Shown here: one piece after another, positions 326 to 31,098 of the stretch
Position numbering within the stretch: the first letter of the stretch is position 1
Layout: the number at the start of each line of letters is the position of its first letter
Assembly: GCA_031420755.1 (NCBI GenBank)
Contig: JANONI010000367.1
Span: forward strand, 1-40,953
Direction: 5' to 3'
Length of the DNA: 40,953 nucleotides
Origin: Bacteroidota bacterium
GTDB taxonomy: Bacteria; Bacteroidota; Ignavibacteria; UBA10030; UBA8401
Made by a program: the position numbers and the translations under genes
The notes under the pieces: model-generated
Database searches by the model: none
What the model was told of the DNA's origin: nothing
What the model saw: the letters and a program-made list of their open reading frames with translations, nothing else

Positions 326-512
326 GAGACATCTGAAAAATCTCACATCAATGTCATTCTGAGGAGCGCAGCGACGAACCTGCCCGCCATCGGTCAGGCG
401 GGGAATCTTGCTTTTTCACTCTCTACGAGCCGTAGGCAAAAATAAAAACGAGATTCTTCTCCGCCTACGGCGGATCAGAATGACAATAGACAACCAATTT
501 TTCAGATGTCTC
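326..512. mobile_element. MITE-like element with GAGACATCTGAAAAAT ends carrying nested palindromic repeats
   Basis: Perfect IR 324-341/497-514; TATTA on both sides (321-325, 513-517); internal TGTCATTCTGA...TCAGAATGACA repeat with further small inserts. Confidence 0.8.
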
Positions 513-532
513 TATTAAATCGGTGAACCTGC

Positions 533-1444
533 GTGTCAAAACTTCCTACCATACTTGTTCTTGTTGGTCCAACCGCATCCGGTAAAACAGCGTTGGCATT
601 CTCCATAGCAAAAAGAATTCCGGTTGAAATTATTTCTGCTGATTCACGCCAAATTTATAAACATCTCACGATAGGAACAGCTAAACCCTCTGAAAAAGAA
701 CTGCATCAAATTCCTCATCATTTCATTGATCTGCTCGAACCAGATCAAAAATTTAATGCAGGAGATTTTCAGGAACAGGGAAGAAAAATTATTTCACAAA
801 TTCTTGATAAGAAAAAACTGCCGATCATTGTTGGAGGAACCGGTTTGTACGTTCAAGCGATTGTTGATGGATTTTTTGAACAACCGAAAATTTCCGGTGA
901 AGTTCGAGAACAATTGGAACTTCGTCTTGTGCGAGAGGGAAAAGAAGCTCTCTTCAAAGAACTGCAATCGATTGATTCTGAATCTGCGCAAACAATGGAT
1001 GCAAGCAAATATCGCCGAGTCATCCGCGCGTTAGAAATATTTCATGAAACCGGAACGCCAATCTCTCAGTTCCATAAACAACACAACGTAAACAAGATGT
1101 ACAACGCTCATTTTTTTGGATTAAACTGGGAACGAAGCAAATTGTACGAGCGGATTAATAACCGCGTTGACAAAATGTTTGCCGAAGGCTTTTTAGATGA
1201 AGTAAAACAATTGAAAGAAAATGGATTTGACGATCGATTTCAATCTCTTCAAACTGTTGGATATACAGAAGCGTTCGCATTCCTTCGGAACGAAATTTCA
1301 AAAGAACGAATGATCGAATTGATGAAACAAAACACACGCCGATTTGCAAAACGCCAAATGACGTGGTTCAGAAAAGAAGAACGGATACAATGGTTTGATA
1401 TTTCCGGCGAAGATCAGATTGACGAGATTGCAAAAAAATTATAA
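533..1444 (+). CDS. miaA: tRNA dimethylallyltransferase
   Basis: GPTASGKT P-loop, IISADSRQIY, VGGTGLY, TRRFAKRQMTWFR. Confidence 0.97.
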   Translation: MSKLPTILVLVGPTASGKTALAFSIAKRIPVEIISADSRQIYKHLTIGTAKPSEKELHQIPHHFIDLLEPDQKFNAGDFQEQGRKIISQILDKKKLPIIVGGTGLYVQAIVDGFFEQPKISGEVREQLELRLVREGKEALFKELQSIDSESAQTMDASKYRRVIRALEIFHETGTPISQFHKQHNVNKMYNAHFFGLNWERSKLYERINNRVDKMFAEGFLDEVKQLKENGFDDRFQSLQTVGYTEAFAFLRNEISKERMIELMKQNTRRFAKRQMTWFRKEERIQWFDISGEDQIDEIAKKL

Positions 1445-1708
1445 ATGGAAACGTACGACACGTTTTGTGTGTCTGACGTTTAGCGAGGGGAAATTTCAAT
1501 TCAAAGATAAGATGTCAGACGACTCTTTTCAAAAAAAAAGCGGGCAAGTCGTCGTCAGACATCAAATAAAAAGAGGTAAAATAATTTTTCATTGTTGTCT
1601 CTCTTTTCCGTATATTTACCTATGCAAGTTCAAATCCACACGTAACTACCTCAACCGTTTTATCGCGTTAGATCATTAATGCAATCCGCAATCTTTAATA
1701 ACTGAAAA

Positions 1709-1755
1709 AACCTTGCGAAGGTTGCCTGCAATCTTCATAAAACCTTCGCAAGGTT
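1709..1755. repeat. Inverted doublet of REP-like AACCTTGCGAAGGTT / AACCTTCGCAAGGTT (uninterrupted allele)
   Basis: 15-nt units at 1709-1723 and 1741-1755 are reverse complements with a 17-nt spacer; family recurs at 5662-5749 and 19755-19977. Confidence 0.8.
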
Positions 1756-1789
1756 TAACTTTCTCGAATTTAATTTTAACAAAACTATT

Positions 1790-3397
1790 ATGAACATTTT
1801 GAAGCAAATTCAAAATCGAAAAACATTTGCAATTATCAGTCACCCTGATGCAGGAAAAACAACGCTGACAGAAAAACTATTGTTGTATGGCGGCGCAATT
1901 CAAATTGCCGGAGCGGTGAAATCAAATAAGATCAAAAAAACGGCGACATCCGATTTTATGGAAATTGAAAAACAGCGCGGAATTTCAGTTTCAACTTCCG
2001 TAATGACTTTTTCCTATAACAATTATACAATAAATCTTCTTGACACACCCGGCCACAAAGACTTCGCAGAAGATACGTATAGAACATTGACCGCTGTTGA
2101 TAGCGTTATTCTTGTTATCGATTGCGTTAAAGGTGTAGAAGAACAAACCGAAAAATTGATGAATGTGTGTAGAATGCGAAATACGCCTGTCATCGTCTTC
2201 ATCAACAAATTAGATCGTGAAGGACGAGAACCGATAGAACTGTTGGATGAAATTGAAGCGAAATTGAATATTCATGTTCGTCCGCTTTCGTGGCCTATGG
2301 GAATCGGCGGGAATTTTCGCGGTGTGTTCAATATTCATGAGAACACATTCAATTTTTTCACGCCAAATAAACAACGGATCGAAGAAGATATCGTTTCATT
2401 CAGCGGTGTTGATGATCTGAAACTGCACGATCAATTCGGAAAACAAGCTGTGCAATTGAAGCATGACATCGATCTTATTAGGGGAGTATATCCTGAATTT
2501 GATGTTCAACAATATCTTTCCGGAAATGCAGCGGCAGTATTTTTTGGAAGCGCGTTGAACAATTTTGGCGTAAAGGAATTGCTTGAAACATTTGTGAAGA
2601 TCGCGCCAAAACCTCAAGGACGTGAAACGACAAAAGGTTTTATTGAACCGACTGATGAAAAATTTTCCGGTTTTGTTTTCAAGCTTCATGCGAATTTAGA
2701 TCCGCGCCATCGTGATAGAATTGCATTTCTTCGGATCGTTTCGGGAATATTTGAACGAAATAAATTTTATTATCATGTTCGTTTGAAACGCGAGTTGAAA
2801 TTCGCTAATCCTACGTCATTTATGGCGCAGGATAAAAGTGTGGTGGACTTCGCTTATCCGGGAGATGTGATTGGTTTGTACGATTCCGGAAATTTTAAGA
2901 TTGGCGACACGCTTACCGAAGGCGAACAGATGATGTATAAGGGAATTCCAACATTCTCTCCGGAAATTTTCAAAGAATTACAACTTACTGATCCGTTCAA
3001 ATCCAAACAATTGGAAAAAGGAATTCTACAATTGACTGATGAGGGACTGGCACAAGTATTTCTGCAGAATCAAGGAAACAGGAAAGTAGTTGGTACTGTG
3101 GGCGATCTGCAATTTGATGTTATTCAGTATCGTTTAGAAAATGAATATGGCGCGCCGTGTCTATTTCGTCCGCTTGCATTGAATAAAGCAACATGGGTGC
3201 AATACGAAAAAGAAGCGGATATTGAATGGCTCAAAACGATCCATCCTCACTCAATGTTCTATGACAAGCATGGTAATTTAGTATTCATTTCCGAATCCAA
3301 ATACGCATTACAGCGCGCGATTGATAATAATCCAAAAGCAAAATTCTTATTTAGCATAGAACATAATACTGAAACACATGAAATGGTGGAAAAATAA
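1790..3397 (+). CDS. prfC: Peptide chain release factor 3
   Basis: [45 protein letters not shown]. Confidence 0.97.
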
Positions 3398-3478
3398 TAT
3401 GAGCAAGCAGTATGTTAGCTGTTATTGTAAAACGACAGATGGACACGGTAGTTCTAAAATTAATAACCCTTAAAGATA

Positions 3479-3629
3479 TGTAACTACACAGCGTGTTTTT
3501 TTATGCCACACCTGCCCGCTCTACGACTCGTAGAGCGGGCAGGTGTGGCAATGATTTTCCTCAATGTTTTTATAGAAAGTCTTTGTCTACGACCTGTAAG
3601 GAAACAATAAATTGCACTGTATAGTTACA
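3479..3629. mobile_element. MITE-like element with TGTAACTACACAG ends containing a perfect 47-bp palindrome
   Basis: IR 3479-3493/3615-3629 (13/15 match); perfect 23-bp arms 3504-3526/3528-3550; two copies of the 16-nt unit inside. Confidence 0.7.
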
Positions 3630-3647
3630 ACGATATAATCAAAATTT

Positions 3648-4448
3648 ATGAAGACCAAAATTTTTTTAATAAAATCTACTAAATACTATTGGCATAAATG
3701 GTCAATCGCATTTAGGATAATGCCAATTGTAACACTTATTGCAATTCTAAAATATCTTTCTCACACTTATGAATTCGAGTTTATGGAGTTAAATGCTCTG
3801 TTTACCACTTTGGTGGCAGGTACAATTTTCCTCATAGGATTTCTTATCACAGGCGTGCTTTCTGATTACAAGGAAAGTGAAAAAATTCCGAGTGAACTTT
3901 CAACTACTCTTCAATCATTATTTGACGATACCTACACTATTTACAAGGGAAAAAACTCTGATACCGCACGACAGTTTATTGAATATCAAAAGTCATTTAT
4001 CAATTCGCTGAACGCTTGGTTTTATAAAAAAGAAAGAACTAATTCAATCCTAAATAAAATAAGTTTGATGAATGATTTTTTTGTATCACTTGACAAAGAA
4101 GGGATTCAACCTAATTACATTATTAAAATAAAAAGTGAGCAAAACAATATCAGAAAGTTAATATTAAGAATAGACACAATAAGAGATACAGGATTCATAG
4201 GTTCTGCTTACGCAATTGTTGAAGCAATGTGGCTTGCAATCGCTTTTGGACTAATTATAATTAAAATCGAACCGTTTTATGCATCTTTGTTTTTCACTAT
4301 ACTTATTATGTTTCTTATTTCATATATGTTTTTTTTGATAAAAGACCTTGATAATCCATTTGATTATTCTACAAGAGGCGAAAGCGGAACAGAAATTTCA
4401 TTAAAACCTATTCAGGACTTTGAAATTGTTCTGAAAGAATTTAATTAA
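3648..4448 (+). CDS. Hypothetical 4-TM membrane protein, bestrophin-like/DUF4239-like
   Basis: Two N-terminal and two C-terminal hydrophobic helices followed by a DLDNPF motif; AT-rich coding sequence. Confidence 0.6.
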   Translation: MKTKIFLIKSTKYYWHKWSIAFRIMPIVTLIAILKYLSHTYEFEFMELNALFTTLVAGTIFLIGFLITGVLSDYKESEKIPSELSTTLQSLFDDTYTIYKGKNSDTARQFIEYQKSFINSLNAWFYKKERTNSILNKISLMNDFFVSLDKEGIQPNYIIKIKSEQNNIRKLILRIDTIRDTGFIGSAYAIVEAMWLAIAFGLIIIKIEPFYASLFFTILIMFLISYMFFLIKDLDNPFDYSTRGESGTEISLKPIQDFEIVLKEFN

Positions 4449-4600
4449 ACTGCATTGTAACAGCAGACAACAACGATACACAAAACAACGAACCGCAAAC
4501 TGTTTTAAGGAATCGGATAAAATTGATTTTGTAAAACCTTTCTCCTTTTGTATATTCTATAAAATATACTCAACAGAATTACAATTTTTAAGAGGAAGTA

Positions 4601-5560
4601 ATGATTGAAAAGAGCGAACACATCGCACAGTTGGAAGAACAATTCAATCAGCGCATTGCGAACGGCGAAACGATCGAACCGAATGATTGGATGCCGGATA
4701 AATACCGCAAGCAGTTGGTTCGTCTTATCTCGCAGCATGCACATTCCGAAATTATTGGAATGCTCCCCGAAGGAAATTGGATAACCCGCGCACCATCGCT
4801 TCGCCGCAAACTTGCTCTGCTTGCAAAAGTACAGGATGAAGCGGGACACGGTCATTATCTCTACAGTTCTGCAGAAACTCTCGGCACTTCCCGCGAAGAA
4901 ATGTTCGATCAACTTCACGAAGGAAAAGCAAAATACTCCTCTATATTTAATTACCCTACGTTATCGTGGGCAGATATGGGAATAATTGGATGGCTTGTTG
5001 ACGGCGCGGCAATTATCAATCAAACCACAATGGCGAAATGTTCTTACGGTCCATACTCACGCGCACTGTTTCGTATTTGTAAAGAAGAAAATTTTCACAA
5101 AAAACAGGGAATGGAAATAATTGCCGCACTCATTGCTTCCGGTGAAAAAGGAAAAGCAATGGTGCAGGAATCGGTCAACAGATTTTGGTGGCAGTCACTT
5201 ATGATGTTCGGTCCGCACGATTCAAATTCTCCTAACAGTGCCGATATGATGAAATGGAAAATTAAACTAAAAAGTAACGATGAACTTCGCCAACGATTTA
5301 TTGATACGACCGTTGAGCAAGCTTATGCGTGGGATTTAACGATCCCAGATGCAAAATTGAAATTCAATGAAACAACGCGAAGCTGGGAAGCAGGTGAAAT
5401 TGATTGGGAAGAATTCAACGCGGTGATCAATGGAAATGGTCCTTGCAATCACGAACGAATGGAAGCTCGCCGGACTGCGCACGATAATGGAAAATGGGTT
5501 CGCGATGCTGCAAGAGCGTATGAAAATAAACAACAGTTGAAGAATAAATCGGCGGCGTAA
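4601..5560 (+). CDS. paaA: 1,2-phenylacetyl-CoA epoxidase subunit A
   Basis: [52 protein letters not shown] di-iron ligands; GAGG SD. Confidence 0.95.
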
Positions 5561-5583
5561 AAAACGAAAGACAAGAAACTCTG

Positions 5584-5820
5584 GGGTATCTCTCTACGAG
5601 TCGTAGACTAAAATCTATTTAGTCGTTCCTTAAAAATTATTCGTAAGAATGCTTCGCATAAAACCTTGCGATGCGAAGCATGCATACGCAAGGTTCTGCA
5701 AAATTCTTTCATAACCTTCGCAAGTCCCAAAGGGACACCTTTGGTGGTTGCTTGCACAGATTACATTTTGTCTACGACCCTTAGGGATGTTTTTAGTCTA
5801 CGACTCGTAGAGAGATGCCT
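5584..5820. mobile_element. MITE with GG(C/T)ATCT...CTAAAA ends, 4-bp target duplication TCTG, multiply nested inserts
   Basis: TIRs 5585-5613/5791-5819 (28/29 match); TCTG at 5580-5583 and 5821-5824; contains an interrupted AACCTT doublet and three 16-nt units. Confidence 0.8.
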
Positions 5821-5840
5821 TCTGAATTTCTAACTGCGCC

Positions 5841-6350
5841 TTATTGATTTCTAATCGCTGCATTCTTCTTCAACGACTCTTTCTCCAACAACTTCTTATA
5901 CTCAATCATTTTCTTCATCAATCTTTTGTCGCTTATTGCAAGCATTTGAACGGCAAGCAATCCGGCATTTTTTGCGCCATCAATTGCAACCGTTGCTACC
6001 GGAACTCCTCCCGGCATTTGTGCTATCGCGAGCAGAGAGTCTAATCCATCTAATGATGTTGTCTTAATTGGAACTCCGATAACCGGAAGATGAGTGTGCG
6101 ATGCTGTCATTCCGGGTAAATGAGCTGCCCCTCCGGCACCGGCAATAATAATTTTAATTCCCCGCTTCGCTGCTGTTGAAGAGTATTTCGTCATAAAATT
6201 CGGTGTGCGATGCGCGGAAGTGATTTTCATTTCATATGCTACGCCAAATTCTTCAAGCATGAGTGCTGCTTCCTGCATTACGGAAAGGTCTGAATCGCTC
6301 CCCATAATTATTCCAACACGAAGTGTCCTTCGGACAATAGGTTTTTTCAT
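5841..6350 (-). CDS. purE: N5-carboxyaminoimidazole ribonucleotide mutase
   Basis: [37 protein letters not shown]. Confidence 0.97.
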
Positions 6351-6384
6351 TTGATTAGCATAGAGGTGTCTGACATCTTAAAAT

Positions 6385-7521
6385 TTATAAACTAATTTTT
6401 TCTTCAATTGCGGTTGCTTCTTTAAGAATCCTCTTCAAATTATCACCAACAATCGTGATATGTCCCATCTTTCGCCCGACACGCGAACTATGCTTACCAT
6501 AAATATGTAAATGAATATTCGGATCGTTCAACGCAGTCTGATATACATCGCTCTTTTTTTGTGGATGCGGTTTTCCTAAAAGATTTACCATCACGGCGTA
6601 TGGCGTTACCATCTCCGTAGAGCCAAGAGGTAATTCCATAACAGAACGGATATGATTCTCGAATTGCGATGTGACACATGCTTCAATTGTGTAATGACCG
6701 GAATTATGCGGGCGCGGAGCCATTTCATTAACAATGATTGAATTGTCATGAGCTAAAAACATTTCTACACCAAACACTCCGAATCCCTTTACGGCGTTCA
6801 CCGATCGGATTGCAATTTTTATTGCGAGCGCAGAAATTTTCTTTGAAATCGGTGCCGGCGCAATTACAGTATGGCAAATATGATTTTTTTGAATGGTCTG
6901 AACAACAGGGTACACCTTGGTTTCTTTTTTGGTGCGAACGACCATCACGGCAAGTTCCATTGTGAAATTCACGAATGCCTCAGCCAGAAGATTGCTATGA
7001 CGATGGGACAAATGCTTTACAGCATTTTTGTATTCTTTTTCATTGTTGATGAGAACATTTCCGTAACCATCGTATCCCATCTTGCGGGATTTTAATACAA
7101 ATGTTGGTCCAAGAATCTTTGCAATCTGTTTAAACGTATGTACTTTTTTTATCTCAATGAATTTTGAAACAGGAATTTTATTTTTTTTAAGAATTTGTTT
7201 TTGCAGCAATTTATCCTGTATCAAGGCAATCGTGGCAGAAGATGGATAAACTTTCTTTCCAAGCGACTCAATAAATTTAAGTTTATGATGATCGACAAAT
7301 TCGTTCTCGAGTGTTATCACATTGCATTGATGAACGAAGGATCGTATATGTAATTCATCATCAACCCAGCCGATACACTCGTTGTGGGTCAATTGTCCCG
7401 CCGGAGAGTGCATTTCTTTATCCATAATAGCAATATCAAACCCCAACCGGGAAGCGGTAATTGTAGACATTTTTGCCAATTGTCCGCCGCCAAGAATTCC
7501 GATGCAGATTTTTTTATCCAT
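6385..7521 (-). CDS. purK: N5-carboxyaminoimidazole ribonucleotide synthase (ATP-grasp)
   Basis: GILGGGQL, GYDGYGN, NEMAPRPHNSGHYT, SQFENHIR, GRKMGHIT. Confidence 0.97.
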   Translation of the reverse strand: MDKKICIGILGGGQLAKMSTITASRLGFDIAIMDKEMHSPAGQLTHNECIGWVDDELHIRSFVHQCNVITLENEFVDHHKLKFIESLGKKVYPSSATIALIQDKLLQKQILKKNKIPVSKFIEIKKVHTFKQIAKILGPTFVLKSRKMGYDGYGNVLINNEKEYKNAVKHLSHRHSNLLAEAFVNFTMELAVMVVRTKKETKVYPVVQTIQKNHICHTVIAPAPISKKISALAIKIAIRSVNAVKGFGVFGVEMFLAHDNSIIVNEMAPRPHNSGHYTIEACVTSQFENHIRSVMELPLGSTEMVTPYAVMVNLLGKPHPQKKSDVYQTALNDPNIHLHIYGKHSSRVGRKMGHITIVGDNLKRILKEATAIEEKISL

Positions 7522-7647
7522 AATAATAGTGGGAATAAAGTGTAGTTCTAAAATGAAATGTCGGACTTGATCAGTACGAAACTATTTTCGGGAGAAAGAT
7601 AATGTGAATTGGCTCTATTAGCAACTATGAAAATGCTGGGATAATGC

Positions 7648-19284: not shown

Positions 19285-19287
19285 TTT

Positions 19288-19594
19288 CGACATCTGGAAA
19301 ACTTCTGAAGCGTAGTACCCGCAACCTTCCCGCTCGAAGAGTCTTTGACATGCCTTCATAATTCTCAGTCGGCGGGCAGGTATTGTTGCGAAGATTGGTT
19401 GGTTATGATTTTTTTAACGCACGCATTCCCGGGATGGAACTTGTGTCAAAAGTCAAATTTTGCGAAACACATCCCCGAAATCTCACCTGTCCGCCTTTGG
19501 CGGAAAGATTTCGGGGATGTTAACGTTGAAAAATAGTTTTGACACAGTCTCGATGGCTTTGCCAAAAGCGTGCGGATATATTTTTCAGATGTCG
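19288..19594. mobile_element. MITE-like element of the GACATCTGAAAAA-end family with nested elements
   Basis: CGACATCTGGAAAA / TTTTTCAGATGTCG ends (13/14), same end family as 326-512; contains MITE 19437-19551. Confidence 0.65.
19437..19551. mobile_element. MITE with (GAGAC)TGTGTCAAAA ends, GATG target duplication
   Basis: GATG at 19433-19436 and 19552-19555; ends GAACTTGTGTCAAAA and TTTTGACACAGTCTC; internal ACATCCCCGAAATCT...AGATTTCGGGGATGT hairpin. Confidence 0.8.
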
Positions 19595-19607
19595 CTAAAA
19601 ATAACTA

Positions 19608-19733
19608 TTGCAATAATTTCTTTTTCTTGATATATTGGAAACGGAAGAAACGATTAAAGTTTCTGAATAAAAAGCCGTGTAAATCCGGCTATTTTTTGGC
19701 TGGAATGGAAACTAAAGAAAATATAAAAGTTTT
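19608..19733 (+). promoter_or_regulatory. Sigma70-type promoter with two candidate TetR operator repeats
   Basis: TTGCAA (19608-13), 17 nt, TGnTATATT (-10 at 19631-36); 27-nt repeats at 19637-19663 and 19707-19733 are 21/27 identical. Confidence 0.55.
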
Positions 19734-19754
19734 CTTGTGTTAAGATGTGGACAA

Positions 19755-19977
19755 AATCTTGCGAAGGTTATATAGTCGAACCTTAAAAAGTAAGAAACCA
19801 TTAATGGTGTCCCTTTGAGACTTGTCAAGGTTTCTTGTGCAAGAATGAAAAGATGGCTGAATTTTAAGAAAACTAAAAACATAACCTTGCCTGCGGCTCG
19901 TAGAGACAAGGTTGTGCAAATGAAGACTTTTTAAGGGATAACTATAATACAACCTTCATAAAAATCTTCGCAAGGTT
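19755..19977. repeat. Cluster of four AACCTTNNNAAGGTT REP-like units, the inner two interrupted by micro-inserts
   Basis: Units at 19755-19769, 19796-19832 (22-nt insert), 19883-19913 (16-nt insert) and 19963-19977. Confidence 0.75.
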
Positions 19978-20005
19978 CAATGAAACAAAAAAATCAGGAG
20001 CATCC

Positions 20006-21688: not shown

Positions 21689-21695
21689 ATAGAAT

Positions 21696-22616: not shown

Positions 22617-22661
22617 TAGGTCCGCATTTGGCAATCCGAAGGATTACTTCGTGAAGCCATC

Positions 22662-22796
22662 GAGTCTGTGTCAAAACTATTTGTATCGCCGAACTCTGTT
22701 CGGCGATGTTACTATTTTCTATTATTTTTACAATTAAAAGTGCCGACCAGCCTATGGCTCGTAGAGAGGTCGGCAATACACTTTTGACACAGTCTG
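22662..22796. mobile_element. MITE with TGTGTCAAAA ends and CATC target duplication, inserted in REP-like repeat 22617-22820
   Basis: CATC at 22658-22661 and 22797-22800; ends 13/15 complementary; removal restores the sequence seen at 17640-17675. Confidence 0.85.
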
Positions 22797-22832
22797 CATC
22801 CCTTTGGGAAATGCCGTTCCGTCGAATTATTT

Positions 22833-23783: not shown

Positions 23784-23786
23784 AAT

Positions 23787-23955
23787 GAAACATCTGAATA
23801 ATCCATAATCAACGTCATTCTGAGTCCCGCTGTTATTTAGCGGGGCGAGGAATCTTGTTTTTCTGCTTAAATTCGCAAACGAGATTTCTCGCTACGCCTG
23901 CCTTCGCTCTACGAGTCGTAGACCGAAACAAAGCGTTGGCTTTGTGCAGGCAGGT
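23787..23955. repeat. Partial copy of the 326-512 composite repeat with nested CCTGCC...GCAGGCAGG repeat and 16-nt unit
   Basis: ACATCTGAAT-AAT..GTCATTCTGAG..GAATCTTG..AAACGAGATT collinear with 329-455; right TIR not found. Confidence 0.65.
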
Positions 23956-24001
23956 GTTTTGGTGGCAAAAAATCATGAACAAGTAGTTACGAAAAATTAA
24001 T

Positions 24002-25129
24002 ATGTTCAGACAATTACTTCCAATCATAAAAAAAGAATTTCGTCAGATCAGACGCGACAGAAAAGTGCTGGCGATTCTTACGTTAGTGCCGGCGATGCTA
24101 TTGCTGTTGAATGGATACGCGCTGAATTTTGATGTTCGCAACATTACAATGGCGGTGTACGATGCTGAAAAGACTCCGCACAGCAGAGAGTTCATCAATA
24201 GTTTTATCACCGCAGGATATTTTGAGTATACAGAATATCTAACCGATTATTCAAAAGCCGAATTGATGATTGATGAAGGAACAGTGAAGCTTGTTCTGGT
24301 TATTCCTCCGGATTTCTCTAGTGATATTATTTCCGGCCGTCCTGCATCTGTTCAATTTCTTGTTGATGGAATGGATGCAAACGCAGCAACAACAATCATT
24401 GGATACGCTCAAGCCGTTACGGTACAATACTCGCAGAAGATCATTTTCACTAATCTTTCTAAAATCGGTAGGAAGAGTTTCATTCCAATACGATATGATG
24501 CCCGAATCTGGTATAATCCGGAAATGAAAAGTGCAAAATTTTTAGTCCCCGGATTGATTGCATTTATTTTAGCAATCACTGGTGTGATCGCTACCGCACT
24601 TTCAATTGTCAAAGAAAAAGAGAGAAATACATTGGAGCAAATTGATGTCTCACCAATTCGGCCGGTTAATCTTATTCTTGGCAAAATGATTCCGTATGCG
24701 ATCATTTCTCTTGTTGCGGCGGCAATTGTTCTCATTGCAGCATATTTTTTATTTGACGTTGTCGTAAAAGGAAGTTTTGTTTTATTGTTTATCACGACAC
24801 TGTTATTTATTTGCGCTGCATTGGGGCAGGGTTTATTGGTTTCAACTATAGCTGATAGTCAACAAGTGGCGTTTCAACTTGCAACGGTAATAGCAATGCT
24901 GCCAACGATGATTCTTTCGGGGTTCATGTTTCCGATTAGCAGTATGCCGTTGTTTCTTCAAATTCTTTCAAATATAACTCCGGCAAAATTCTATCTGGTA
25001 ATTATGCGGGGAATCGTGTTGAAAGGAGTTGGTCTTGAAGCATTTTGGGATCAGATCATTTATTTGGGAATATTTATTACAGTGGTTGTTGCAATCAGCA
25101 TCAAACGATTTAAGAATCATTCGGTATAA
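24002..25129 (+). CDS. ABC-2 type permease (YbhS-like)
   Basis: KEFRQIRRD, GYALNFDV, WYNPE, IVKEKERNTLEQ, LSGFMFPI. Confidence 0.92.
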   Translation: MFRQLLPIIKKEFRQIRRDRKVLAILTLVPAMLLLLNGYALNFDVRNITMAVYDAEKTPHSREFINSFITAGYFEYTEYLTDYSKAELMIDEGTVKLVLVIPPDFSSDIISGRPASVQFLVDGMDANAATTIIGYAQAVTVQYSQKIIFTNLSKIGRKSFIPIRYDARIWYNPEMKSAKFLVPGLIAFILAITGVIATALSIVKEKERNTLEQIDVSPIRPVNLILGKMIPYAIISLVAAAIVLIAAYFLFDVVVKGSFVLLFITTLLFICAALGQGLLVSTIADSQQVAFQLATVIAMLPTMILSGFMFPISSMPLFLQILSNITPAKFYLVIMRGIVLKGVGLEAFWDQIIYLGIFITVVVAISIKRFKNHSV

Positions 25130-26254
25130 ATGAACATTCAACGATTAAAAGCATTGGTGCAAAAGGAATTTGCGCAATTCTTCAAAGACAAAAGACTGCT
25201 GCCGATCATTTTTGTAGCACCGATTTTACAATTGGTGTTTTTGGGATTTGCTGCTTCGCTTGATGTAAAGAATATTTCATTTGTTCTTTGCGATCTTGAT
25301 AAAACGAGTGAAAGCAGAAAATTAGCGGAAGTATTTGTCAACTCGGGATATTTCAGACTTACATACTCAACCGAAAACTATAACAGTGTTCAACAATATC
25401 TTGATAACAGTACTGTGGCAATGGCAATTGTCATTCCGCCGAAGTTTGGGAATAAAATTTTGCGAAGTGAAACAGCGAATATTCAATTATTGTTCGATGG
25501 CAGTGAAGGGAACTCGACTGCGATTGCAGCAAGTTACGCCGGTCAAATCATAAACCGATTTTCACAAAATATTCTTGTGGATATGGTTGGAGATATGAAA
25601 AAGCTTGGCGGCATTAATACCGAAACTCGTGCGTGGTACAATCCAACATTGATCAGCAGAAAATTTATGGTTCCAGGGGTTTTGGTTCTTATCCTTCTGA
25701 TAACGACAATGAATTTAACATCAATGGCAATTGTCAAAGAAAAAGAGATTGGAACGCTGGAACAATTATTGGTAACGCCACTTCGTCCAATTGAAATGAT
25801 CATCGGCAAATTAGTGCCGTTCACACTTATTGGATTGATTGTCGTTTCGGTGGCGATCACGGTGATGGTGTTTGGTTTTTCAATTCCGATACGCGGAAGT
25901 GTTGTATTATTATTTGTGTTGACCGGATTTTTTTTAATGACATCGCTCGGACTTGGATTATTCGTTTCAACAATATCAAAAACGCAGCAACAGGCAATGA
26001 TGATTGGAATGTTTTTTGTCATGCAGCCGATGATGTATCTATCAGGTTTTGTTTTTCCGGTGGAGAACATGCCTGAACCGTTACAATGGCTGGCGCATGC
26101 CATTCCTATGAAGTATTATTTGACCGTGATTCGTTCTATCATTCTTAAAGGTGTTGGGATAGCCGATCTGTGGTTTGAAGCAACGATGCTTTTTGGAATG
26201 GGCGTTGTGATCTTAACTGCAAGTGTTATAAGGTTCAAAGAAAAAATTGACTAA
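25130..26254 (+). CDS. ABC-2 type permease (YbhR-like)
   Basis: KEFAQFFKD, WYNP, IVKEKEIGTLEQLLVTP, SGFVFPVENMP. Confidence 0.92.
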   Translation: MNIQRLKALVQKEFAQFFKDKRLLPIIFVAPILQLVFLGFAASLDVKNISFVLCDLDKTSESRKLAEVFVNSGYFRLTYSTENYNSVQQYLDNSTVAMAIVIPPKFGNKILRSETANIQLLFDGSEGNSTAIAASYAGQIINRFSQNILVDMVGDMKKLGGINTETRAWYNPTLISRKFMVPGVLVLILLITTMNLTSMAIVKEKEIGTLEQLLVTPLRPIEMIIGKLVPFTLIGLIVVSVAITVMVFGFSIPIRGSVVLLFVLTGFFLMTSLGLGLFVSTISKTQQQAMMIGMFFVMQPMMYLSGFVFPVENMPEPLQWLAHAIPMKYYLTVIRSIILKGVGIADLWFEATMLFGMGVVILTASVIRFKEKID

Positions 26255-29004
26255 AAGATCGGGTATCCAACTGAAAAATATGCAATGATCGGTCCGAGTG
26301 TAAATGGTTGATCAAGCAAGTCCCTTCTGATATAGAAACTTCTTCCGACCGATGCGTTGATTGGTCCTGCTGGTGTATCGAGTGATAAGATAATGCCTAC
26401 TCCGTGATGAAAATCTCTTAACCGAATATCTTCTTGCTGAGGCCAGATACTTCCCAGATCATATCTGAATCGAAAATAGGTATCCCAAATAATCTTAAAT
26501 GGAAATCGGGTTCTAAATTCCACACTGGTCAAAAAGATTTGTCGTCCTCGGGAATCGTACTCCCGTAATCCGAAGAAAGAATCTTCACCGCCAAGTGCAA
26601 ATTGTTGTGTTAAGGGGAGTGTTTGATCTCCAAATCCCACAATAATTTTTGGATGGAGGGTGAAATTTTTGTACGATGTATTGGTTTCATACGCAAAATA
26701 TATTTTTGAATACCCGACATCGCCAACAACCCCTTTTAATGTTGATAGGGCAGTTTCCCACGAAAAATTTGTGAGCGAGCCACTGCGCGCAAAAGGATAT
26801 CGGTCTCGTGAATCAATTGTTGAACCGATTCTGAATGTTTGGAGTGAAAATTCTCCCGGAGTATATCCTGTTCCGGATAGGGATTTTACTTCATCGGATT
26901 CAATCCGATATTCCAGATTAAAAATACCAAATCGTTCTACCTGCTGTCCCATTTGAAATGAAACTCCATAAAGAATCTGGCGATATTCTCCAATCTTTGA
27001 TCGAAAGAATTTTTTACTCGATGTTTTGTTTATATCATCTGCATAGGTATTGATGTCGCGCAAGTCATAATACGCATCCATATTAAAAGTGAAATATGTG
27101 TTAAAGATTCTATTTACCTGGAAATCGGTAAGATATTTTCTGTTTCGCATTCCTCCGGCAAAACTGGCACCGACTTCAGTTGCTGTTCCGAGAAGATTTT
27201 CGTTCCGAAATTCTAACGACGGTTGGAGATTTCGTTCGTTATCAAGTCTAAACCCAAGACGCGAAACATCAGTCGGCTTTTCTTCCATTTGGATTGTAAT
27301 CACCGGTTTATCGTTCTCATAGCCAACATCCATTGATACTTGTTCAAAAAGGTTTGTTCCATAGAGATTGGTGAGTGCTTTTTTTCCTTTGTCAACAGTG
27401 AAAATATTTCCATCACTAAATCCTAATTCCCGCCAAACCACCCAGTCTCGCGAGATTTTTTTCCCCCGAAGATAAATTTTGCTGACAATACCTTCGCTGA
27501 TTTCTAAAGATAAGTTTCCGGTTAATGAATCAAAACTTGTCTTTTGTATTCGTGCCAGAGAATAACCGTTTGAACGGTACATTCCCAGAAGTATTTCATA
27601 CGCATCTTCGGTTTTTGGATGATTAATTGGTTTTCCAATTAACGAATTGAATGATGAAAGCAGAATGTCCGATTGGATCAACGAATTTCCTGTGATGGAG
27701 ATTGAACGAAGCTGCGGATTTGCCGATGCTATAATTGTAACACTTGCCGTTGAATCCGAAATTGTAATTTCTGCTTTAACTTCTTTGTACCAACCCTTGC
27801 TATACAGAGCGGATATCATTTCACGAATAATCGGAACTGATGTTTTGGTGTTGGTTTGTAAAATATTTTTAAATGAAGAATCGTTGTATTCAATATTTTC
27901 ATTTAATGAATTGATGACCAGTGAAAAATTTGATAGCGGAGAAGCATCATATAGCATCATTCTTTTTTTCGATTCAATAGAATCTTGTATTGCCCGAATC
28001 TTTAGTTGAGCGGCTTTATTTCCCTGTTGTTTCACAAATGAAAGTTTTGAAAAATCTAATGACGGATAAGAACCTAAATCTGGGGTGATAACTATTGTTG
28101 CGTTGTCCAATGCTCTCTTATTCGATTCCTGCGCCATGATGTTGACTATCTGATCGTTGACTTCCCATGCATTATTCAGTTGTGCCGCCGTGCGCAGAGG
28201 GCTTACAGTATTTACTGCGATAATGATATCCGCACCCAGTTGCTTTGCAATATCAACGGGAATATTTGAAAGTATTCCGCCATCAGTGAGTTCAAGTGTA
28301 TCTTTTTTTAATGGGCTGTACAATAGCGGAATGGAAATACTTGCACGAAGTGCCTCGGATAAATTTCCTGAACTGAAAACAATCTGTTTTCCAGAAATAA
28401 GATCGGTAGAGACGCAACGAAATGGAATTTTAAGATCATCAAAATTTTGAATCGGGTGATAGAGACTTTGTAAGGTCAACTGATTGATGAAATTTGTCAA
28501 TCGCTGTCCGCTCGAAATTGCGGATGGAAGAATGGGCGTTAAGCCGTCGAATCGAATAGTTAATTGTTTTCTATCCGCCGCCACCTTATGAGCAAAATAG
28601 AGATCAGCTCTTTCATTATCTTGTGTAAGAGAAAGAACATAATTCCAATCGGTTGTATCAACTAATCGTTCAAGTTCATCCGTTGAATAACCTGAGGCAT
28701 ACAATCCTCCAATTATTCCACCCATACTTGTTCCAACAATGTAATCAATTGGAATGTTGTTCTTTTCAAGTTCTTTAATGACCCCAATATGAGCAATCCC
28801 TCTGGATCCGCCGCCGCTCAGTACTAGGCACACCGTTGGTCGCTTTATTGATTGAAACGGAATTGAAGTTGTTCTTCCGGTTAATCGTTCAGAAAATAGG
28901 GGTGTAACAAGTATTTTCTTTTCCTGAGAATAGAAAAAAGAGTTACACAGAAAAAATAGCAGTAATAATTTTTTAACAGGGTACTGAAAAGCAATTGTCT
29001 TCAT
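26251..29004 (-). CDS. Patatin-like phospholipase fused to POTRA and BamA/TamA-type barrel (PlpD / type Vd architecture)
   Basis: LSGGGSRGIAHIG, GTSMG nucleophile, DGG; POTRA-like segments; GLREY and DTPAGP barrel motifs, terminal Phe. Confidence 0.9.
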   Translation of the reverse strand: MKTIAFQYPVKKLLLLFFLCNSFFYSQEKKILVTPLFSERLTGRTTSIPFQSIKRPTVCLVLSGGGSRGIAHIGVIKELEKNNIPIDYIVGTSMGGIIGGLYASGYSTDELERLVDTTDWNYVLSLTQDNERADLYFAHKVAADRKQLTIRFDGLTPILPSAISSGQRLTNFINQLTLQSLYHPIQNFDDLKIPFRCVSTDLISGKQIVFSSGNLSEALRASISIPLLYSPLKKDTLELTDGGILSNIPVDIAKQLGADIIIAVNTVSPLRTAAQLNNAWEVNDQIVNIMAQESNKRALDNATIVITPDLGSYPSLDFSKLSFVKQQGNKAAQLKIRAIQDSIESKKRMMLYDASPLSNFSLVINSLNENIEYNDSSFKNILQTNTKTSVPIIREMISALYSKGWYKEVKAEITISDSTASVTIIASANPQLRSISITGNSLIQSDILLSSFNSLIGKPINHPKTEDAYEILLGMYRSNGYSLARIQKTSFDSLTGNLSLEISEGIVSKIYLRGKKISRDWVVWRELGFSDGNIFTVDKGKKALTNLYGTNLFEQVSMDVGYENDKPVITIQMEEKPTDVSRLGFRLDNERNLQPSLEFRNENLLGTATEVGASFAGGMRNRKYLTDFQVNRIFNTYFTFNMDAYYDLRDINTYADDINKTSSKKFFRSKIGEYRQILYGVSFQMGQQVERFGIFNLEYRIESDEVKSLSGTGYTPGEFSLQTFRIGSTIDSRDRYPFARSGSLTNFSWETALSTLKGVVGDVGYSKIYFAYETNTSYKNFTLHPKIIVGFGDQTLPLTQQFALGGEDSFFGLREYDSRGRQIFLTSVEFRTRFPFKIIWDTYFRFRYDLGSIWPQQEDIRLRDFHHGVGIILSLDTPAGPINASVGRSFYIRRDLLDQPFTLGPIIAYFSVGYPIF

Positions 29005-29170
29005 GATTTTATGTAGTAAGATACGAAAATCTTCAAAAAAAAGTTGAATATATTTAGTAACCCATGTTTGAAGTTAAGAATAAAAGAATAATGTTTACAA
29101 TCACAACAATTTTAGACATATAGCGTATTATGTATGCATCAAAAACAAACAAAAGAATGGGGGGACAATA

Positions 29171-29389
29171 ATGACACCTGATACTGCGAGCAACAGGATG
29201 CAAAAAAATAATGGTATTTTATTCTTTAATCTTGCCATTATACTTACTAGTTTTACAATTGCTTTAGTAGCACTGCCGCAAGAAATGTTTTTTGTTGTTA
29301 CAATCATTGTTTTAATTGCACTTCGTATAATTGAAAAGGATGTTACAAAATCTGAAAAACGACGGTCATCGATGCTTACGCAAATTTGA
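29171..29389 (+). CDS. Small hypothetical two-TM membrane protein
   Basis: GGGGGA upstream, two hydrophobic stretches, basic tail, followed by a terminator. Confidence 0.5.
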   Translation: MTPDTASNRMQKNNGILFFNLAIILTSFTIALVALPQEMFFVVTIIVLIALRIIEKDVTKSEKRRSSMLTQI

Positions 29390-29413
29390 TCTCATTAAAT
29401 AGTTCTCATGCAG

Positions 29414-29447
29414 AAAGGACGGATTCTAACCCGTCCTTTTTATTTTT
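29414..29447 (+). terminator. Intrinsic terminator
   Basis: AAAGGACGG-8 nt-CCGTCCTTT plus T-tract. Confidence 0.7.
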
Positions 29448-29565
29448 AAAAACAACTGAAAAACTTCTGACTTGAATTCTTTCTTGGACTGAAATCTTTA
29501 ATTGAGTAACTTTCCTCTATAAAGTTATACAACCTCAGAACGTTATAAAAAGCCGTTTATTATTT

Positions 29566-30846
29566 ATGAAACTTTCCTCTCTTATCGGGCATGTAACGGA
29601 ACTCTATAACGATGTGCTTGCTTCCCCAAAACCGGCAGACAGATTGATAGACGTTTTTTTTCGTGAAAGAAAATATCTCGGATCAAAAGATAGACGATTT
29701 ATTTCAGAAACCTTGTACGGCATTCTCCGGAACAAACGAAAAATAGAATTGAGCATACAATTCGTTCAAGATAAGCGAACAATCCTTTTTAGTTGCATTG
29801 CATATTTACTCCTCGACAAAAAATATTCCGCAGAATCTCTAAGCAGTGAAGTTGATATTCCGATTGATACGCTCTTAACAATTGGACAAAAGATCACTTC
29901 TAATCCCGTTTCTGATTCCAGTATTGAATCAATTGCGATACAATATTCTTTTCAAGATTGGATGATTAGTGAATGGAATGAATATTTTGGCAGATCAGAA
30001 GTAGATGCGTTGTGTACAACGTTGAATACACAAGCACCGATGACAATTCGTGTCAACACTATTAAAACTACTGTTGAAGAATGTAAAAATAAAATGATGC
30101 TTGAAGGAGTTGAGACTGAAAAAGCGCAATACTCTCCGTACGCGCTTCATTTAAAAAAAAGAATAAATATATTTCAATTACAGGCGTTTAAGGTTGGTTT
30201 ATTTGAAGTGCAGGATGAAGGAAGTCAATTGTTGGCAATGCTTGTCGATCCTGAACCTAAATCAAAAGTTCTTGATGCGTGCGCGGGTGCAGGCGGAAAA
30301 GCATTAGCGATGGCTTCAATCATGAATAACTGCGGAGAAATATTTGCGTTTGATATTCATTCGTTCAGATTGGATGAACTTAAAAAACGTATCCGCCGAA
30401 GCGGACTTGATTCCATTCACACAAGGACAATTCGTGAAAATGAAGTAGAAGAGAGTTTTATTGGTGAAGCGGATTATGTATTGGTAGATGCACCGTGCAC
30501 TGGAACGGGAACAATTCGTCGTAATCCGGGTATGAAATGGAGTGTTACACAACACATGGTTCGAGAATTGCGCGAAAAACAACTTTCAATCTTGTCGTTA
30601 AATTCTCAATACGTTAAAGTAGGCGGTCGTTTGATCTATGCAACCTGTTCACTAATAAAAGACGAAAACCAAAATGTGATAGAACAGTTTTTAAGTAACA
30701 AAAAGAATTTTGAATTAGTAAATCCATCGTCAATATTGGAAAGGTATAACCTTACAGGTATGACGAACGAGAAATACTTTCAATTATTACCTCACCGATA
30801 TAACACTGATGGTTTTTTTGCCGCCGTTATGAAAAGAGTAAGTTGA
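29566..30846 (+). CDS. RsmB/NOP2/Sun-family RNA cytosine-C5 methyltransferase
   Basis: VQDEGSQ, LDACAGAGGK, VLVDAPCTGTG..RRNP, YATCS, TDGFF. Confidence 0.92.
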   Translation: MKLSSLIGHVTELYNDVLASPKPADRLIDVFFRERKYLGSKDRRFISETLYGILRNKRKIELSIQFVQDKRTILFSCIAYLLLDKKYSAESLSSEVDIPIDTLLTIGQKITSNPVSDSSIESIAIQYSFQDWMISEWNEYFGRSEVDALCTTLNTQAPMTIRVNTIKTTVEECKNKMMLEGVETEKAQYSPYALHLKKRINIFQLQAFKVGLFEVQDEGSQLLAMLVDPEPKSKVLDACAGAGGKALAMASIMNNCGEIFAFDIHSFRLDELKKRIRRSGLDSIHTRTIRENEVEESFIGEADYVLVDAPCTGTGTIRRNPGMKWSVTQHMVRELREKQLSILSLNSQYVKVGGRLIYATCSLIKDENQNVIEQFLSNKKNFELVNPSSILERYNLTGMTNEKYFQLLPHRYNTDGFFAAVMKRVS

Positions 30847-31098
30847 TCCGTAAAAACAAAGAAACCTTCCCTATCCGAAGGATGCTTCGTATATTGAGAA
30901 AGACTCCGAAGAAGTCTCATATTTGTAACAAGCGATAAAAAAAATAATAGAACTCCGTTAGGTCTACGACCCGTAGGGAGTTCAACAATAGCACCGCGTT
31001 TAGCAATTACGGTGTAGATGTATTCAGGAACACTGTGTAGCGCGTTCAGTACGCCTTTCCATGGGAAAATTTTATGTAGGCGTACTTTTTTCAAATAG

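Follow-up and report, generated by a model that had tools for sequence, protein, structure and literature searches.

A 16-nt palindromic unit as a candidate mobile micro-repeat of the order Ignavibacteriales

INTRODUCTION

In a stretch of 40,953 nucleotides (the window, that is, the whole stretch of DNA that was analyzed) from a 3.0-Mb genome of the order Ignavibacteriales (G000, a fragmented assembly of 440 contigs), a palindromic unit of 16 nt stands at ten separate positions. Has so small a sequence moved there, and if so, by what means? Among short palindromic repeats, REPs are described as 20 to 40 nt long (23 nt for the smallest one cited), and their GTAG stands unpaired on the 5' side of the stem (PMC3733652; PMC8266576). 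In these accounts REPs are found alone, in inverted pairs, or in clusters, and a Y1/HUH enzyme encoded by a single-copy gene is proposed to move them in trans on single-stranded DNA (ssDNA) (PMC8266576; PMC3116915), and TnpA-REP is described as cleaving and rejoining ssDNA at CT or CA beside small GTAG hairpins (PMC8266576). Bacteroidetes do not figure among the sources of GTAG REPs reported in a 2013 survey (PMC3733652).

RESULTS

Ten copies in the window

We scanned the window with the pattern CYCTACGRGYCGTAGR, allowing up to 2 mismatches. All ten positions listed by a first-pass annotation of this DNA were recovered, with a chance expectation of 0.04 and a largest shuffle value of 1; the scan lists 16 matches, given that the near-palindrome also matches the opposite strand at six sites. 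The copies, assigned to subtypes A, B, and C (see below), are as follows.

421..436, + strand: unit of subtype B (CTCTACGAGCCGTAGG), then C; centre of the module ttttcact^caaaaa of a larger palindromic repeat, a context that occurs elsewhere both filled and empty
3520..3535, - strand: unit of subtype A (CTCTACGAGTCGTAGA), then G; apex of a perfect long palindrome (window positions ~3505-3550)
3586..3601, - strand: degenerate unit (CCTTACAGGTCGTAGA), 2 mismatches against subtype C; variant found 7 times in the genome
5592..5607, + strand: unit of subtype A; left inverted-repeat arm, gggyatct^ctaaaa, of a ~230-nt MITE-like element
5771..5786, - strand: degenerate unit (CCCTAAGGGTCGTAGA), 1 mismatch against subtype C; variant found 6 times in the genome
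5797..5812, - strand: unit of subtype A; right arm of the ~230-nt MITE-like element, mirroring the copy at 5592-5607
19890..19905, - strand: unit, variant of subtype B (…GCCGCAGG); apex of an AACCTTG/CAAGGTT hairpin
22751..22766, - strand: unit, variant of subtype B (…GCCATAGG); apical loop of a REP-like hairpin, TGCCGACC…GGTCGGCA; variant found 12 times in the genome
23907..23922, + strand: unit of subtype A; at gccttcg^ccgaaac, a junction that the empty paralogues of C381 and C424 cross gap-free
30963..30978, - strand: unit of subtype C (CCCTACGGGTCGTAGA); within a GAACT…AGTTC hairpin

As the first-pass annotation had described, all ten copies lie between long open reading frames (ORFs), the preceding base in unit orientation is T in 8/10 and the following base C in 9/10, and removal of exactly 16 nt restores the four host palindromes AACCTTG^ACAAGGTT, TGCCGACCAG^AGGTCGGCA, GAACTCCGTTAGG^AGTTC, and GGTATCT^CTAAAA. 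As ssDNA, the 50-nt region at the 3520..3535 copy folds at -31.2 kcal/mol (z, -13), and the unit alone gives a weak fold (-2.8 to -3.6 kcal/mol; z, -1.3 to -2.0). The context of the copy at 5592..5607 has 16 members, with an empty paralogue for 8.

The unit across the genome

Genome-wide, the 17-mer C-Y-CTACG-R-G-Y-CGTAG-R-C has 195 to 197 exact copies (by mismatch count, 195 exact, 58 with 1 mismatch, 24 with 2, and 32 with 3, which indicates little decay), and the non-coding DNA of G000 holds a total of about 200 to 300 unit copies. There are 223 CTACG-NNN-CGTAG sites, 216 of them with an RGY centre; of the 209 sites that could be oriented, 204 have C in front of the unit's Y and 198 have C directly behind the unit. 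The unit can be read as 16 nt or, equivalently, as the 15-nt palindrome YCTACGR-G-YCGTAGR, with inverted arms of 7 nt each, plus one duplicated C, this possible 1-bp duplication at insertion being indistinguishable from no duplication. CTAC/GTAG make up the stem itself, on both strands. There are three sharp subtypes (representative letters in the list above): of the 207 units flanked by 40 nt or more on either side, 94 belong to A, 53 to B, and 40 to C, and the double form has 0 copies. Such sharp subtypes point to copying from a few master sequences, not to decay.

Exact boundaries and target

Deleting exactly 16 nt produced a gap-free empty-site paralogue for 77 of the 207 units, and the equivalent 1-nt shift did so for 86 (union, 90), while deletions of 14, 15, 17, or 18 nt, or a 3-nt shift, did so for 0/207. 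Some empty copies are 100% identical to the flanks of the filled copy over 68 to 74 nt. The spacing of flank pairs was 0 nt in 169 cases, 16 nt in 134, and 32 nt in 6, and an unbiased indel spectrum of intergenic repeats peaked at 16 nt (62 segments, mostly the unit). The discrete insert with exact boundaries (16 nt, or 15 nt and a duplicated C) proposed for the window is thereby confirmed.

These spacings also bear on the explanation that the unit represents the joined ends or the excision footprint of a larger DDE-type transposon, its 7-nt arms being the tips of the TIR. The inverted arms and the possible 1-bp duplication would agree with such an origin, and an assembly of 440 contigs could miss a multicopy parent. 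However, only the 0-, 16-, and 32-nt spacings recur at the same targets, with no longer insert bounded by half-sites in the fragmented assembly of G000; no common longer sequence follows solo half-sites; and the near-complete unit-bearing genomes G003 (7 contigs) and G040 (6 contigs) hold only 5 to 6 copies. Known DDE transposase binding sites are also far longer than 7 bp per end. We regard this origin as very unlikely.

The units occupy 97 distinct flank contexts, 36 of them with an empty paralogue. Among these contexts, 80 have Y at position L-2, 59 have T at L-1, 87 have C at R+1, and 82 have R at R+3, giving a degenerate target of approximately Y-T^C-N-R-A-A with the unit inserted directly 5' of C, in agreement with the T^C-type site first described. 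A perfect stem of at least 5 bp across the junction was found in 17/97 contexts versus 4.4% of a control set of 5000 intergenic T^C positions. Insertion inside other palindromes, as claimed from the window, is therefore enriched approximately fourfold, but it is not the rule. Orientation showed no bias with respect to local GC skew (93 versus 83; p = 0.5). As many as 193 of the 207 units lie outside ORFs of at least 150 codons, though such ORFs cover 82% of the genome, and a plausible reason for its exclusion from genes is that a 16-nt insert would shift the reading frame, 16 not being divisible by 3.

Nesting, arrays, and host repeats

Several members share one context in 30 cases, with clusters of up to 18, so part of the copies must have been carried along as their host repeat multiplied. 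Extended to all copies, this would mean that the unit is not mobile by itself: after a single entry into a small number of larger repeats (MITEs, REPs), it would have multiplied along with these, and recombination or gene conversion would have exchanged it between copies. The multimember contexts themselves fit this explanation, as does the presence of a single subtype in 27/30 of them; units also stand at symmetric positions in both arms of a ~320-nt palindromic MITE, mirror positions that arm-to-arm conversion could yield. Nevertheless, 67 of the 97 contexts are singletons, 13 of them with an empty paralogue, and the contexts are unrelated sequences. Peeling 206 units exposed 18 further units and then 2 more, and subtype-C units were found at CTCTA^CGAG within subtype A or B units (n = 15), the identical internal position being used in A and B hosts with different surroundings. 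Tandem arrays with a 16-nt period occur in the sister species G014, and the identical 17-mer is shared by families of the order whose genes are only 65 to 70% identical at the DNA level. All of this argues against amplification with host repeats as the general explanation, which we therefore consider quite unlikely.

Taxonomic range and an orthologous empty site

The 17-mer was present in 56 of 277 genomes of the order (7 matches for a reversed control) and in none of 361 genomes sampled outside it. Empty and filled sites could also be compared between genomes. The copy at 22751..22766 belongs to the hairpin family that flanks the C392 RAYT gene, and units occupy apical loops of REP hairpins in G000. 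The first such hairpin past the stop codon of that gene reads ctgaccgg-[16 nt]-aggtcggc in G000, while its orthologue in G006 (RAYT, 81% amino acid identity) reads ctgaccgg-aggtcagc, with an empty loop; the REP loops at the G009 orthologue (70%) are empty too. This locus, filled in G000 and empty in both relatives, together with the empty and filled sites within the genome, supports the idea of an extremely small non-autonomous mobile unit put forward in the first-pass annotation. The closest genomes compared had ~80 to 87% gene identity, and the best metagenome locus had 84% protein identity; recent movement is therefore inferred from paralogues, not seen between strains.

A perfect 15-bp palindrome that is intergenic and conserved in sequence across families of the order might also be a protein-binding site (an operator or a nucleoid-protein site) kept by selection without any mobility. 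Against this stand the exact 16-nt presence or absence in 36 contexts, the self-nesting, the tandem arrays, and the copies in hairpin loops of other repeats. In addition, species within a single genus differ widely in copy number (0 to 197), and no Rfam family overlaps any unit copy. A selected binding site is thus an extremely improbable explanation.

Candidate enzymes

No mobilizing enzyme is encoded in the window, as noted before: Y1 genes are absent there, and the ten PF01797 matches of the genome (3 IS200-like and 7 RAYT-like) lie elsewhere. NCBIfam models were run on 8 of the 10 Y1 proteins, and the REP_Tyr_transpos cutoff was passed by 2 of the 5 RAYT-like proteins scanned. Only 1/10 of the Y1 genes of G000, the C392 RAYT gene, is flanked by units, and these sit in the loops of a different REP; the orthologues in G006, G009, and G003 have no flanking units. 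In five other unit-rich genomes, a unit-like sequence was found within 1.5 kb of only 1/21 Y1 loci. The C159-type IS200-like gene, the one family tested across the order, occurs in 142/277 genomes, many of them without units, and the unit-rich genomes G185 and G181 lack a close orthologue (33% and 44% identity). Thus, none of the Y1 genes examined is consistently next to units or tracks them, and the suggested REP-type link through GTAG found no support, GTAG lying within the stem here instead of being an unpaired tag. The left boundary, at or within C|T (subtypes A and B) or C|C (subtype C), is compatible with TnpA-REP cleavage at CT/CA.

G000 also contains classical REP-RAYT pairs: the C374 and C84 genes each lie between two hairpins with a trailing CTAC. 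The C392 RAYT gene is surrounded by REP arrays, and the C87 IS200-like gene has hairpins of a different type (GCCCT…AGGGC) on its flanks.

Sister families

Two further palindromes have the frame C-TC..GA-G-TC..GA-C in common with the unit. Each of the 16 copies of TCGAAGA-G-TCTTCGA stands between C..C flanks, and removing exactly 16 nt gives an empty paralogue for 10/16; TCCAAAGGA-G-TCCTTTGGA has 7 copies and shows the same behavior at exactly 20 nt.

A scenario without a dedicated enzyme is replication template switching, in which the growing strand, halted at a hairpin, would use microhomology to copy the unit from a different locus before returning. Short stretches of the flanks do match the ends of the unit (C at either end, T or R adjoining), giving a boundary ambiguity of 1 to 2 nt. 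Furthermore, the next base after the unit is G in 10/97 contexts, and in at least 3 of these ten the flanks extend the palindrome perfectly, as quasi-palindrome correction would give; the lack of any Y1 gene tied to the unit among the loci examined points the same way. On the other hand, exact boundaries in 90/207 testable units, with 0 at ±1 nt in length, are unexpected from microhomology of 1 or 2 bases; three unrelated palindromes with one frame and a similar target suggest recognition by a protein; and the restriction to a single order, where bursts appear in scattered genomes, is more easily explained by a genetic agent than by a replication error common to all organisms. We therefore hold template switching to be unlikely.

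It is possible, though on the doubtful side, that the unit, together with its sister families, represents a class of its own, "nano-transposons" of less than 20 nt with the form C-[mini-hairpin]-G-[complementary mini-hairpin]-C, pasted 5' of C in exposed loops by a structure-specific ssDNA enzyme other than the REP-flanked RAYTs. The 7- to 9-nt arms would each fold on themselves (TC-GTA-GA, TC-GAA-GA, TCC-AAA-GGA; GNA-type triloops). In a hand tally of the rows listed for other genomes, changes were paired within the arm (T..A to C..G) in 141/150 rows, while pairing between arms stayed Watson-Crick in only 70/150, which fits self-folding arms. If true, no smaller self-defined mobile DNA would be known, and the movement of REP-like repeats could be worked out on a minimal substrate.

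DISCUSSION

The explanation that we favor, with a probability of roughly 0.6, is that the unit is a non-autonomous mobile micro-repeat of Ignavibacteriales, moved in trans by a candidate structure-specific enzyme. Mobility is supported by sequence comparison, and the unit would rank among the smallest mobile DNA elements described. The putative enzyme would act on single-stranded or extruded DNA and would most likely be an HUH/Y1 transposase of the IS200 or RAYT type. It may recognize the small hairpin, or two GNA-type mini-hairpins formed by the arms, and would join the unit into exposed loop positions.

Like the REPs of REPtrons, the unit is a short, high-copy, extragenic palindrome containing GTAG. 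Nevertheless, it measures 16 nt compared with the 20 to 40 nt given for REPs in the sources above, and its GTAG is in the stem instead of the unpaired 5' tag described there; its weak fold as ssDNA is likewise unlike that of a REP. None of the RAYT genes has units around it in the role of its own repeats; instead, units are secondary inserts in the REP loops of another RAYT. The boundaries of the unit are base-exact, while REP insertion is rarely resolved to the base.

IS200/IS605 elements are described as strand biased with replication (PMC6006769) and as having two different subterminal hairpins and guide tetranucleotides (PMC8266576). The unit shares with them no or minimal target duplication and a specific, short sequence beside the insertion site; a mechanism that recognizes hairpins and works on single strands is also shared, although for the unit this is only proposed. 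It differs in having room for one hairpin only, a degenerate ~Y-T^C target in place of insertion 3' of a fixed tetra- or pentanucleotide, and no GC-skew bias (93 versus 83).

The unit likewise resembles MITEs in being non-autonomous and intergenic, with inverted ends and nested insertions. MITEs, however, are usually longer than 50 to 100 nt, derive from a recognizable IS, and generate target duplications of at least 2 bp, while the unit has 16 nt and a duplication of at most 1 bp, and no parent IS was found in the fragmented assembly of G000.

The nearest described phenomenon is that of the small dispersed repeats (SDR) known from cyanobacteria such as Nostoc, which are reportedly 21 to 27 nt long, some of them palindromic. 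They reportedly insert into each other as well as at hairpins, and no transposase is known to have been assigned to them. The unit is also shorter than 30 nt and self-nesting, with empty and filled sites and no assigned transposase, and by the definition of SDR it is a variant of very small dispersed repeats. Unlike SDR, it has 16 nt, belongs to another phylum, and has a different sequence, with the frame C-TC..GA-G-TC..GA-C common to its sister families.

To our knowledge, in vivo transposition of a single REP has never been shown, and the way in which REPs and SDR spread has been an open question for decades. The unit makes the spread of tiny palindromes testable, given its base-exact ends and dozens of empty and filled pairs in one genome, together with self-nesting at fixed positions, a defined target, and ten candidate enzymes. 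The three subtypes amount to natural compensatory-mutation experiments, and the sister families provide other stems in the same frame.

The intergenic DNA of some Ignavibacteriales consists of layers of repeats within repeats, which bears on the assembly and annotation of metagenome-assembled genomes. One spacer measures 712 nt in G000 versus ~160 nt in a relative.

A discrete 16-nt insert

All ten copies of the unit that the first-pass annotation had placed in the window (contig C367 of G000, the source genome, 3.0 Mb in 440 contigs with 40% G+C) were recovered at their positions, each matching CYCTACGRGYCGTAGR with no more than two mismatches (10/10 sites; 0.04 expected by chance). They all lie between long open reading frames (ORFs) and, in unit orientation, are preceded by T in 8/10 and followed by C in 9/10 cases, as described. 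Exact removal of 16 nt restores each of the four host palindromes named in that annotation.

Genome-wide, we counted 223 sites of the form CTACG-NNN-CGTAG in G000, 216 of them with an RGY center. The conserved block is the 17-mer C-Y-CTACG-R-G-Y-CGTAG-R-C, whose first C is present in 204/209 and last C in 198/209 oriented sites. As in the window, placement is mostly intergenic: 193 of 207 units fall outside ORFs of at least 150 codons, which make up 82% of the genome.

The flanks of each of these 207 units were joined and searched against the G000 genome for an empty site. Exact removal of 16 nt gave a gap-free junction match for 77/207 units and a frame shifted by one base did so for 86/207 (union, 90), while removal of 14, 15, 17, or 18 nt, or a frame shifted by 3 nt, gave none among the 207. 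Shifts of −1 and +2 worked for 16 and 22 units, respectively, only where unit and flank share a base (a shift of −2 gave none), the kind of ambiguity to be expected with a C at each unit end. Since the empty site retains one C, the insert can be read as 16 nt without duplication or as a palindrome of 15 nt accompanied by duplication of a single C (1 bp); these readings are equivalent and cannot be told apart.

The units occupy 97 distinct flank sequences (here, contexts), including 67 singletons, and an empty paralogue is present for 36/97, 13 of them singletons. In some cases, the empty copy matches the flanks of the filled one at 100% identity over 68 to 74 nt. Across all contexts, paired flanks were separated by 0 nt 169 times, by 16 nt 134 times, and by 32 nt 6 times, and G000 showed no further recurrent spacing attributable to a longer form of the unit. 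When indels were scanned without bias across the intergenic repeats as a whole, their lengths peaked at 16 nt (62 segments), and most of these segments were the unit itself. A parent element ended by unit halves is improbable on the evidence of the fragmented G000 assembly, in which solo half-sites lead nowhere and no longer insert was found at the same targets. There are 29 unit pairs lying 350 to 3,500 nt apart, and the ORFs between them are ordinary by size, as in the window.

Subtypes and arm pairing

Only three subtypes are common among the 207 fully flanked sites, namely, A (CTCTACGAGTCGTAGAC; n = 94), B (CTCTACGAGCCGTAGGC; n = 53), and C (CCCTACGGGTCGTAGAC; n = 40); the double form was not found in G000. 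Relative to the nearest subtype, 195 copies in G000 had no mismatch, 58 had one, 24 had two, and 32 had three, with reversed-sequence controls giving 3 raw windows at two mismatches and 16 at three. Folding of a lone unit as single-stranded DNA (ssDNA) is weak (subtype A, −3.6 kcal/mol; B, −2.9 kcal/mol; C, −2.8 kcal/mol). The changes between subtypes are paired inside one arm (TCTACGA to CCTACGG and TCGTAGA to CCGTAGG). Among 150 entries from other genomes tallied by hand (380 more lay outside this tally), there were 63 of subtype A, 44 of B, 27 of C, 7 of the double form, and 9 others; complementarity within the arm (T..A or C..G) was kept in 141/150, and Watson-Crick pairs between arms, confined to A and the double form, in 70/150. 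This predominance of intra-arm over inter-arm pairing is a lead rather than proof, because the independent events are few.

Nested units, tandem arrays, and an empty site in relatives

The earlier proposal of a tiny nonautonomous mobile unit with clean boundaries, often inside other repeats, is well backed by the paralogues together with the evidence from nesting, arrays, and distribution. When 206 units were peeled in silico, 18 more were exposed, and a further round exposed 2. Fifteen subtype C units sit inside A or B units at CTCTA^CGAG, in the same orientation, and the reverse nesting, an inverted A or B unit at the center of a C unit, occurs four times. The sister species G014 carries subtype C units head to tail with a period of 16 nt, with ordinary genes on either side:

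L030 (G014, contig C20), 1279-1339: subtype C array
L036/L048 (G014, contig C47), ca. 3845-3969: subtype C array

No nuclease or transposase was found beside these arrays, the neighbors being a CBM/T9SS-tail protein, an arylsulfotransferase-like protein, and a weak PAS match.

The empty and filled states could also be compared between species, at one locus. The REP (hairpin repeat) sequences flanking the REP-associated tyrosine transposase (RAYT)-like gene of contig C392 hold a subtype B unit in the apical loop. The first hairpin past its stop codon reads ctgaccgg-(16 nt)-aggtcggc in G000 versus ctgaccgg-aggtcagc in the relative G006, whose orthologue is 81% identical in amino acids, and in the relative G009 (orthologue 70% identical), every such hairpin loop is empty. 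This is the only alignable between-species empty site; in other relatives, genes are ca. 80 to 87% identical and the host repeats are wholly absent. No strains of the same species were present among 20 relatives or 80 metagenome loci, and the 80 loci, syntenic to the window (919 kb; best locus, 84% protein identity), contained no units.

Target sites and host repeats

Target preferences were profiled with one representative per context (n = 97). The second base to the left is C or T in 80/97 and the adjacent one is T in 59/97; on the right, the first base is C in 87/97 and G in the remaining 10, the third is A or G in 82/97, and the fourth and fifth are rich in A. A perfect stem of at least 5 bp spans the junction in 17/97 contexts, versus 4.4% of 5,000 intergenic T^C positions. 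Thus, the idea that the unit lands in hairpins holds as a preference and not as a requirement: hairpin loops are preferred targets but not obligatory ones.

Many units occupy mirror positions in the arms, and the center, of a palindromic MITE of ca. 320 nt (GGGCRGTTCT…AGAACYGCCC), with an occupancy that varies among copies. Examples of this almost perfect palindrome, built of short modules, are found in G000:

C17, 2895-3215: MITE-like element
C132, 4270-4640: MITE-like element
C147, 3495-3760: MITE-like element

Repeats also account for the intergenic expansion of the window relative to G001 and G002 (19285-20005 versus L010 to L012). The spacer downstream of panB is 712 nt versus ca. 160 nt in G001, and that between two ABC ATPase genes is ca. 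210 nt versus 57 nt in G002.

Sister families

We scanned G000 for every maximal palindrome of odd length centered on a G, and three stand out.

Odd palindromes with a central G in G000
TCTACGA-G-TCGTAGA: 100 copies, C..C flanks in 99
TCGAAGA-G-TCTTCGA: 16 copies, C..C flanks in 16/16
TCCAAAGGA-G-TCCTTTGGA: 7 copies, C..C flanks in 7/7

The second, as a 16-nt insert (CTCGAAGAGTCTTCGA), has an exact 16-nt empty site for 10/16 copies, and the third, as a 20-nt insert (TCCAAAGGAGTCCTTTGGA(C)), has an exact 20-nt empty site for 10/14 frames; for neither did a length 1 nt longer or shorter give an empty site. The two families occupy cccg^cc targets. Copies of these sister families include the following:

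G000 contigs C6, C44, C63, and C124, among others: sister-family copies
Window, near 19330-19350: cgctcgaagagtctt in repeats

All three palindromes have TC…GA arms, a GAGTC center, and flanking Cs, and the unit is a member of a small superfamily sharing one frame. Each arm can form, on one strand, a mini-hairpin with a GNA-type triloop, a class of loop that is probably stable. A restriction-modification or ruler-type cut measured from the central GAGTC was rejected, as GAGTC occurs at about the expected frequency (O/E, 1.02) and the 20-nt family has its ends 7 nt away from it, not 5 nt.

Further discrete inserts of 18 to 19 nt (GCGAAGCATCCTTCGGAT, GCGTATGCATGCTTCGCAT, and ACCTGTCCGCCTTTGGCGG) recur among repeat copies in G000. 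A GCGAAGC mini-hairpin motif is present in several of them, and one such insert interrupts a subtype B unit.

Window, 5660-5690: 18- to 19-nt inserts, intergenic repeats
Window, 19470-19520: 18- to 19-nt inserts, intergenic repeats

Distribution and known systems

The exact 17-mer pattern occurs in 56/277 genomes (24/110 genera) of the order Ignavibacteriales, with 7 hits in total for the reversed control. Across the 277 genomes, 11 carry at least 11 copies and 221 carry none. Rich genomes (G000, 197 units; G014, 40; G067, 37; G183, 29; G185, 26; G181, 21; G069, 21; and G017, 19) are dispersed over several families. In a phylum-wide sample, the pattern was found in 10/40 genomes of the order, in 0/60 from elsewhere in the class, and in 0/301 of other classes. 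Carriage by phages was rejected, a viral collection having given one match, on one viral contig.

No Rfam family overlaps the units. The 13-mer CTACGAGTCGTAG had no match in the papers searched, and none of the matches listed describes, by title or abstract, palindromic repeats of this kind in Ignavibacteria. The nearest described systems are REPs/REPINs and the small dispersed repeats of cyanobacteria, which are 21 to 27 nt long. The unit is shorter than REPs and fails their definition, and it is shorter than the cyanobacterial repeats and belongs to another phylum. It provides a minimal, experimentally tractable substrate.

Candidate enzymes

G000 has ten matches to the Y1 type of HUH transposase (PF01797). 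NCBIfam, applied to eight of the proteins, classed three as IS200-like and five as RAYT-like, and among the RAYT-like ones, two (C129 and C392) scored above the REP_Tyr_transpos cutoff; those of C84 and C310 were placed as RAYT-like by inspection of their sequences, outside the NCBIfam run. RAYT-like genes with hairpins of their own on both sides, several of these hairpins followed by CTAC as in classical REPs, are found at the following places in G000:

C392, 1-1000: REP-RAYT arrangement
C374, 7400-8270: REP-RAYT arrangement
C84, 1100-1750: REP-RAYT arrangement
C431, 2600-3300: REP-RAYT arrangement
C291, 4780-5500: REP-RAYT arrangement
C129: REP-RAYT arrangement

A 2013 survey (PMC3733652) reported no GTAG REPs from Bacteroidetes.

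The RAYT mechanism proposed at first is neither supported nor excluded. No RAYT-like gene in G000 has the unit as its own repeat. The expected RAYT or IS200-like gene flanked by dense copies did not turn up; units adjoin C392 only, and secondarily. No unit was found within 1.5 kb in 28/30 C392-like loci, in 28/30 C87-like loci (the exceptions being G000 and contig C19 of G032), or in 20/21 Y1 loci of five unit-rich genomes. At the G032 locus, an IS200-like gene lies between two direct repeats of ca. 200 nt with a subtype B unit in each and more repeats between them (L108, 1230-2660). The C159-type IS200-like gene, the one Y1 gene of the ten that was profiled order-wide, does not track the unit and is widespread across the order irrespective of it. 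Unit orientation showed no bias relative to local GC skew, and no replication-strand bias was found. An HUH enzyme is the most economical guess for the mover, though no more than a guess, because TnpA-REP enzymes cut and rejoin ssDNA at CT or CA next to small GTAG hairpins (PMC8266576).

Other features

The most underrepresented pentamer in G000 is CCAGG/CCTGG (O/E, 0.42), and this scarcity suggests a putative CCWGG-specific restriction-modification system. In the window, the phenylacetate degradation genes form two groups, with an LPS/BamA/Skp/LpxD-LpxC-FabZ-LpxA block and an ABC exporter operon between them, and the sole Rfam match is a tRNA gene:

4601-5560: paaA
31460-32668: pcaF/paaJ-like thiolase
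33370-35400: paaZ
35490-36266: enoyl-CoA hydratase
37979-38061, + strand: tRNA gene
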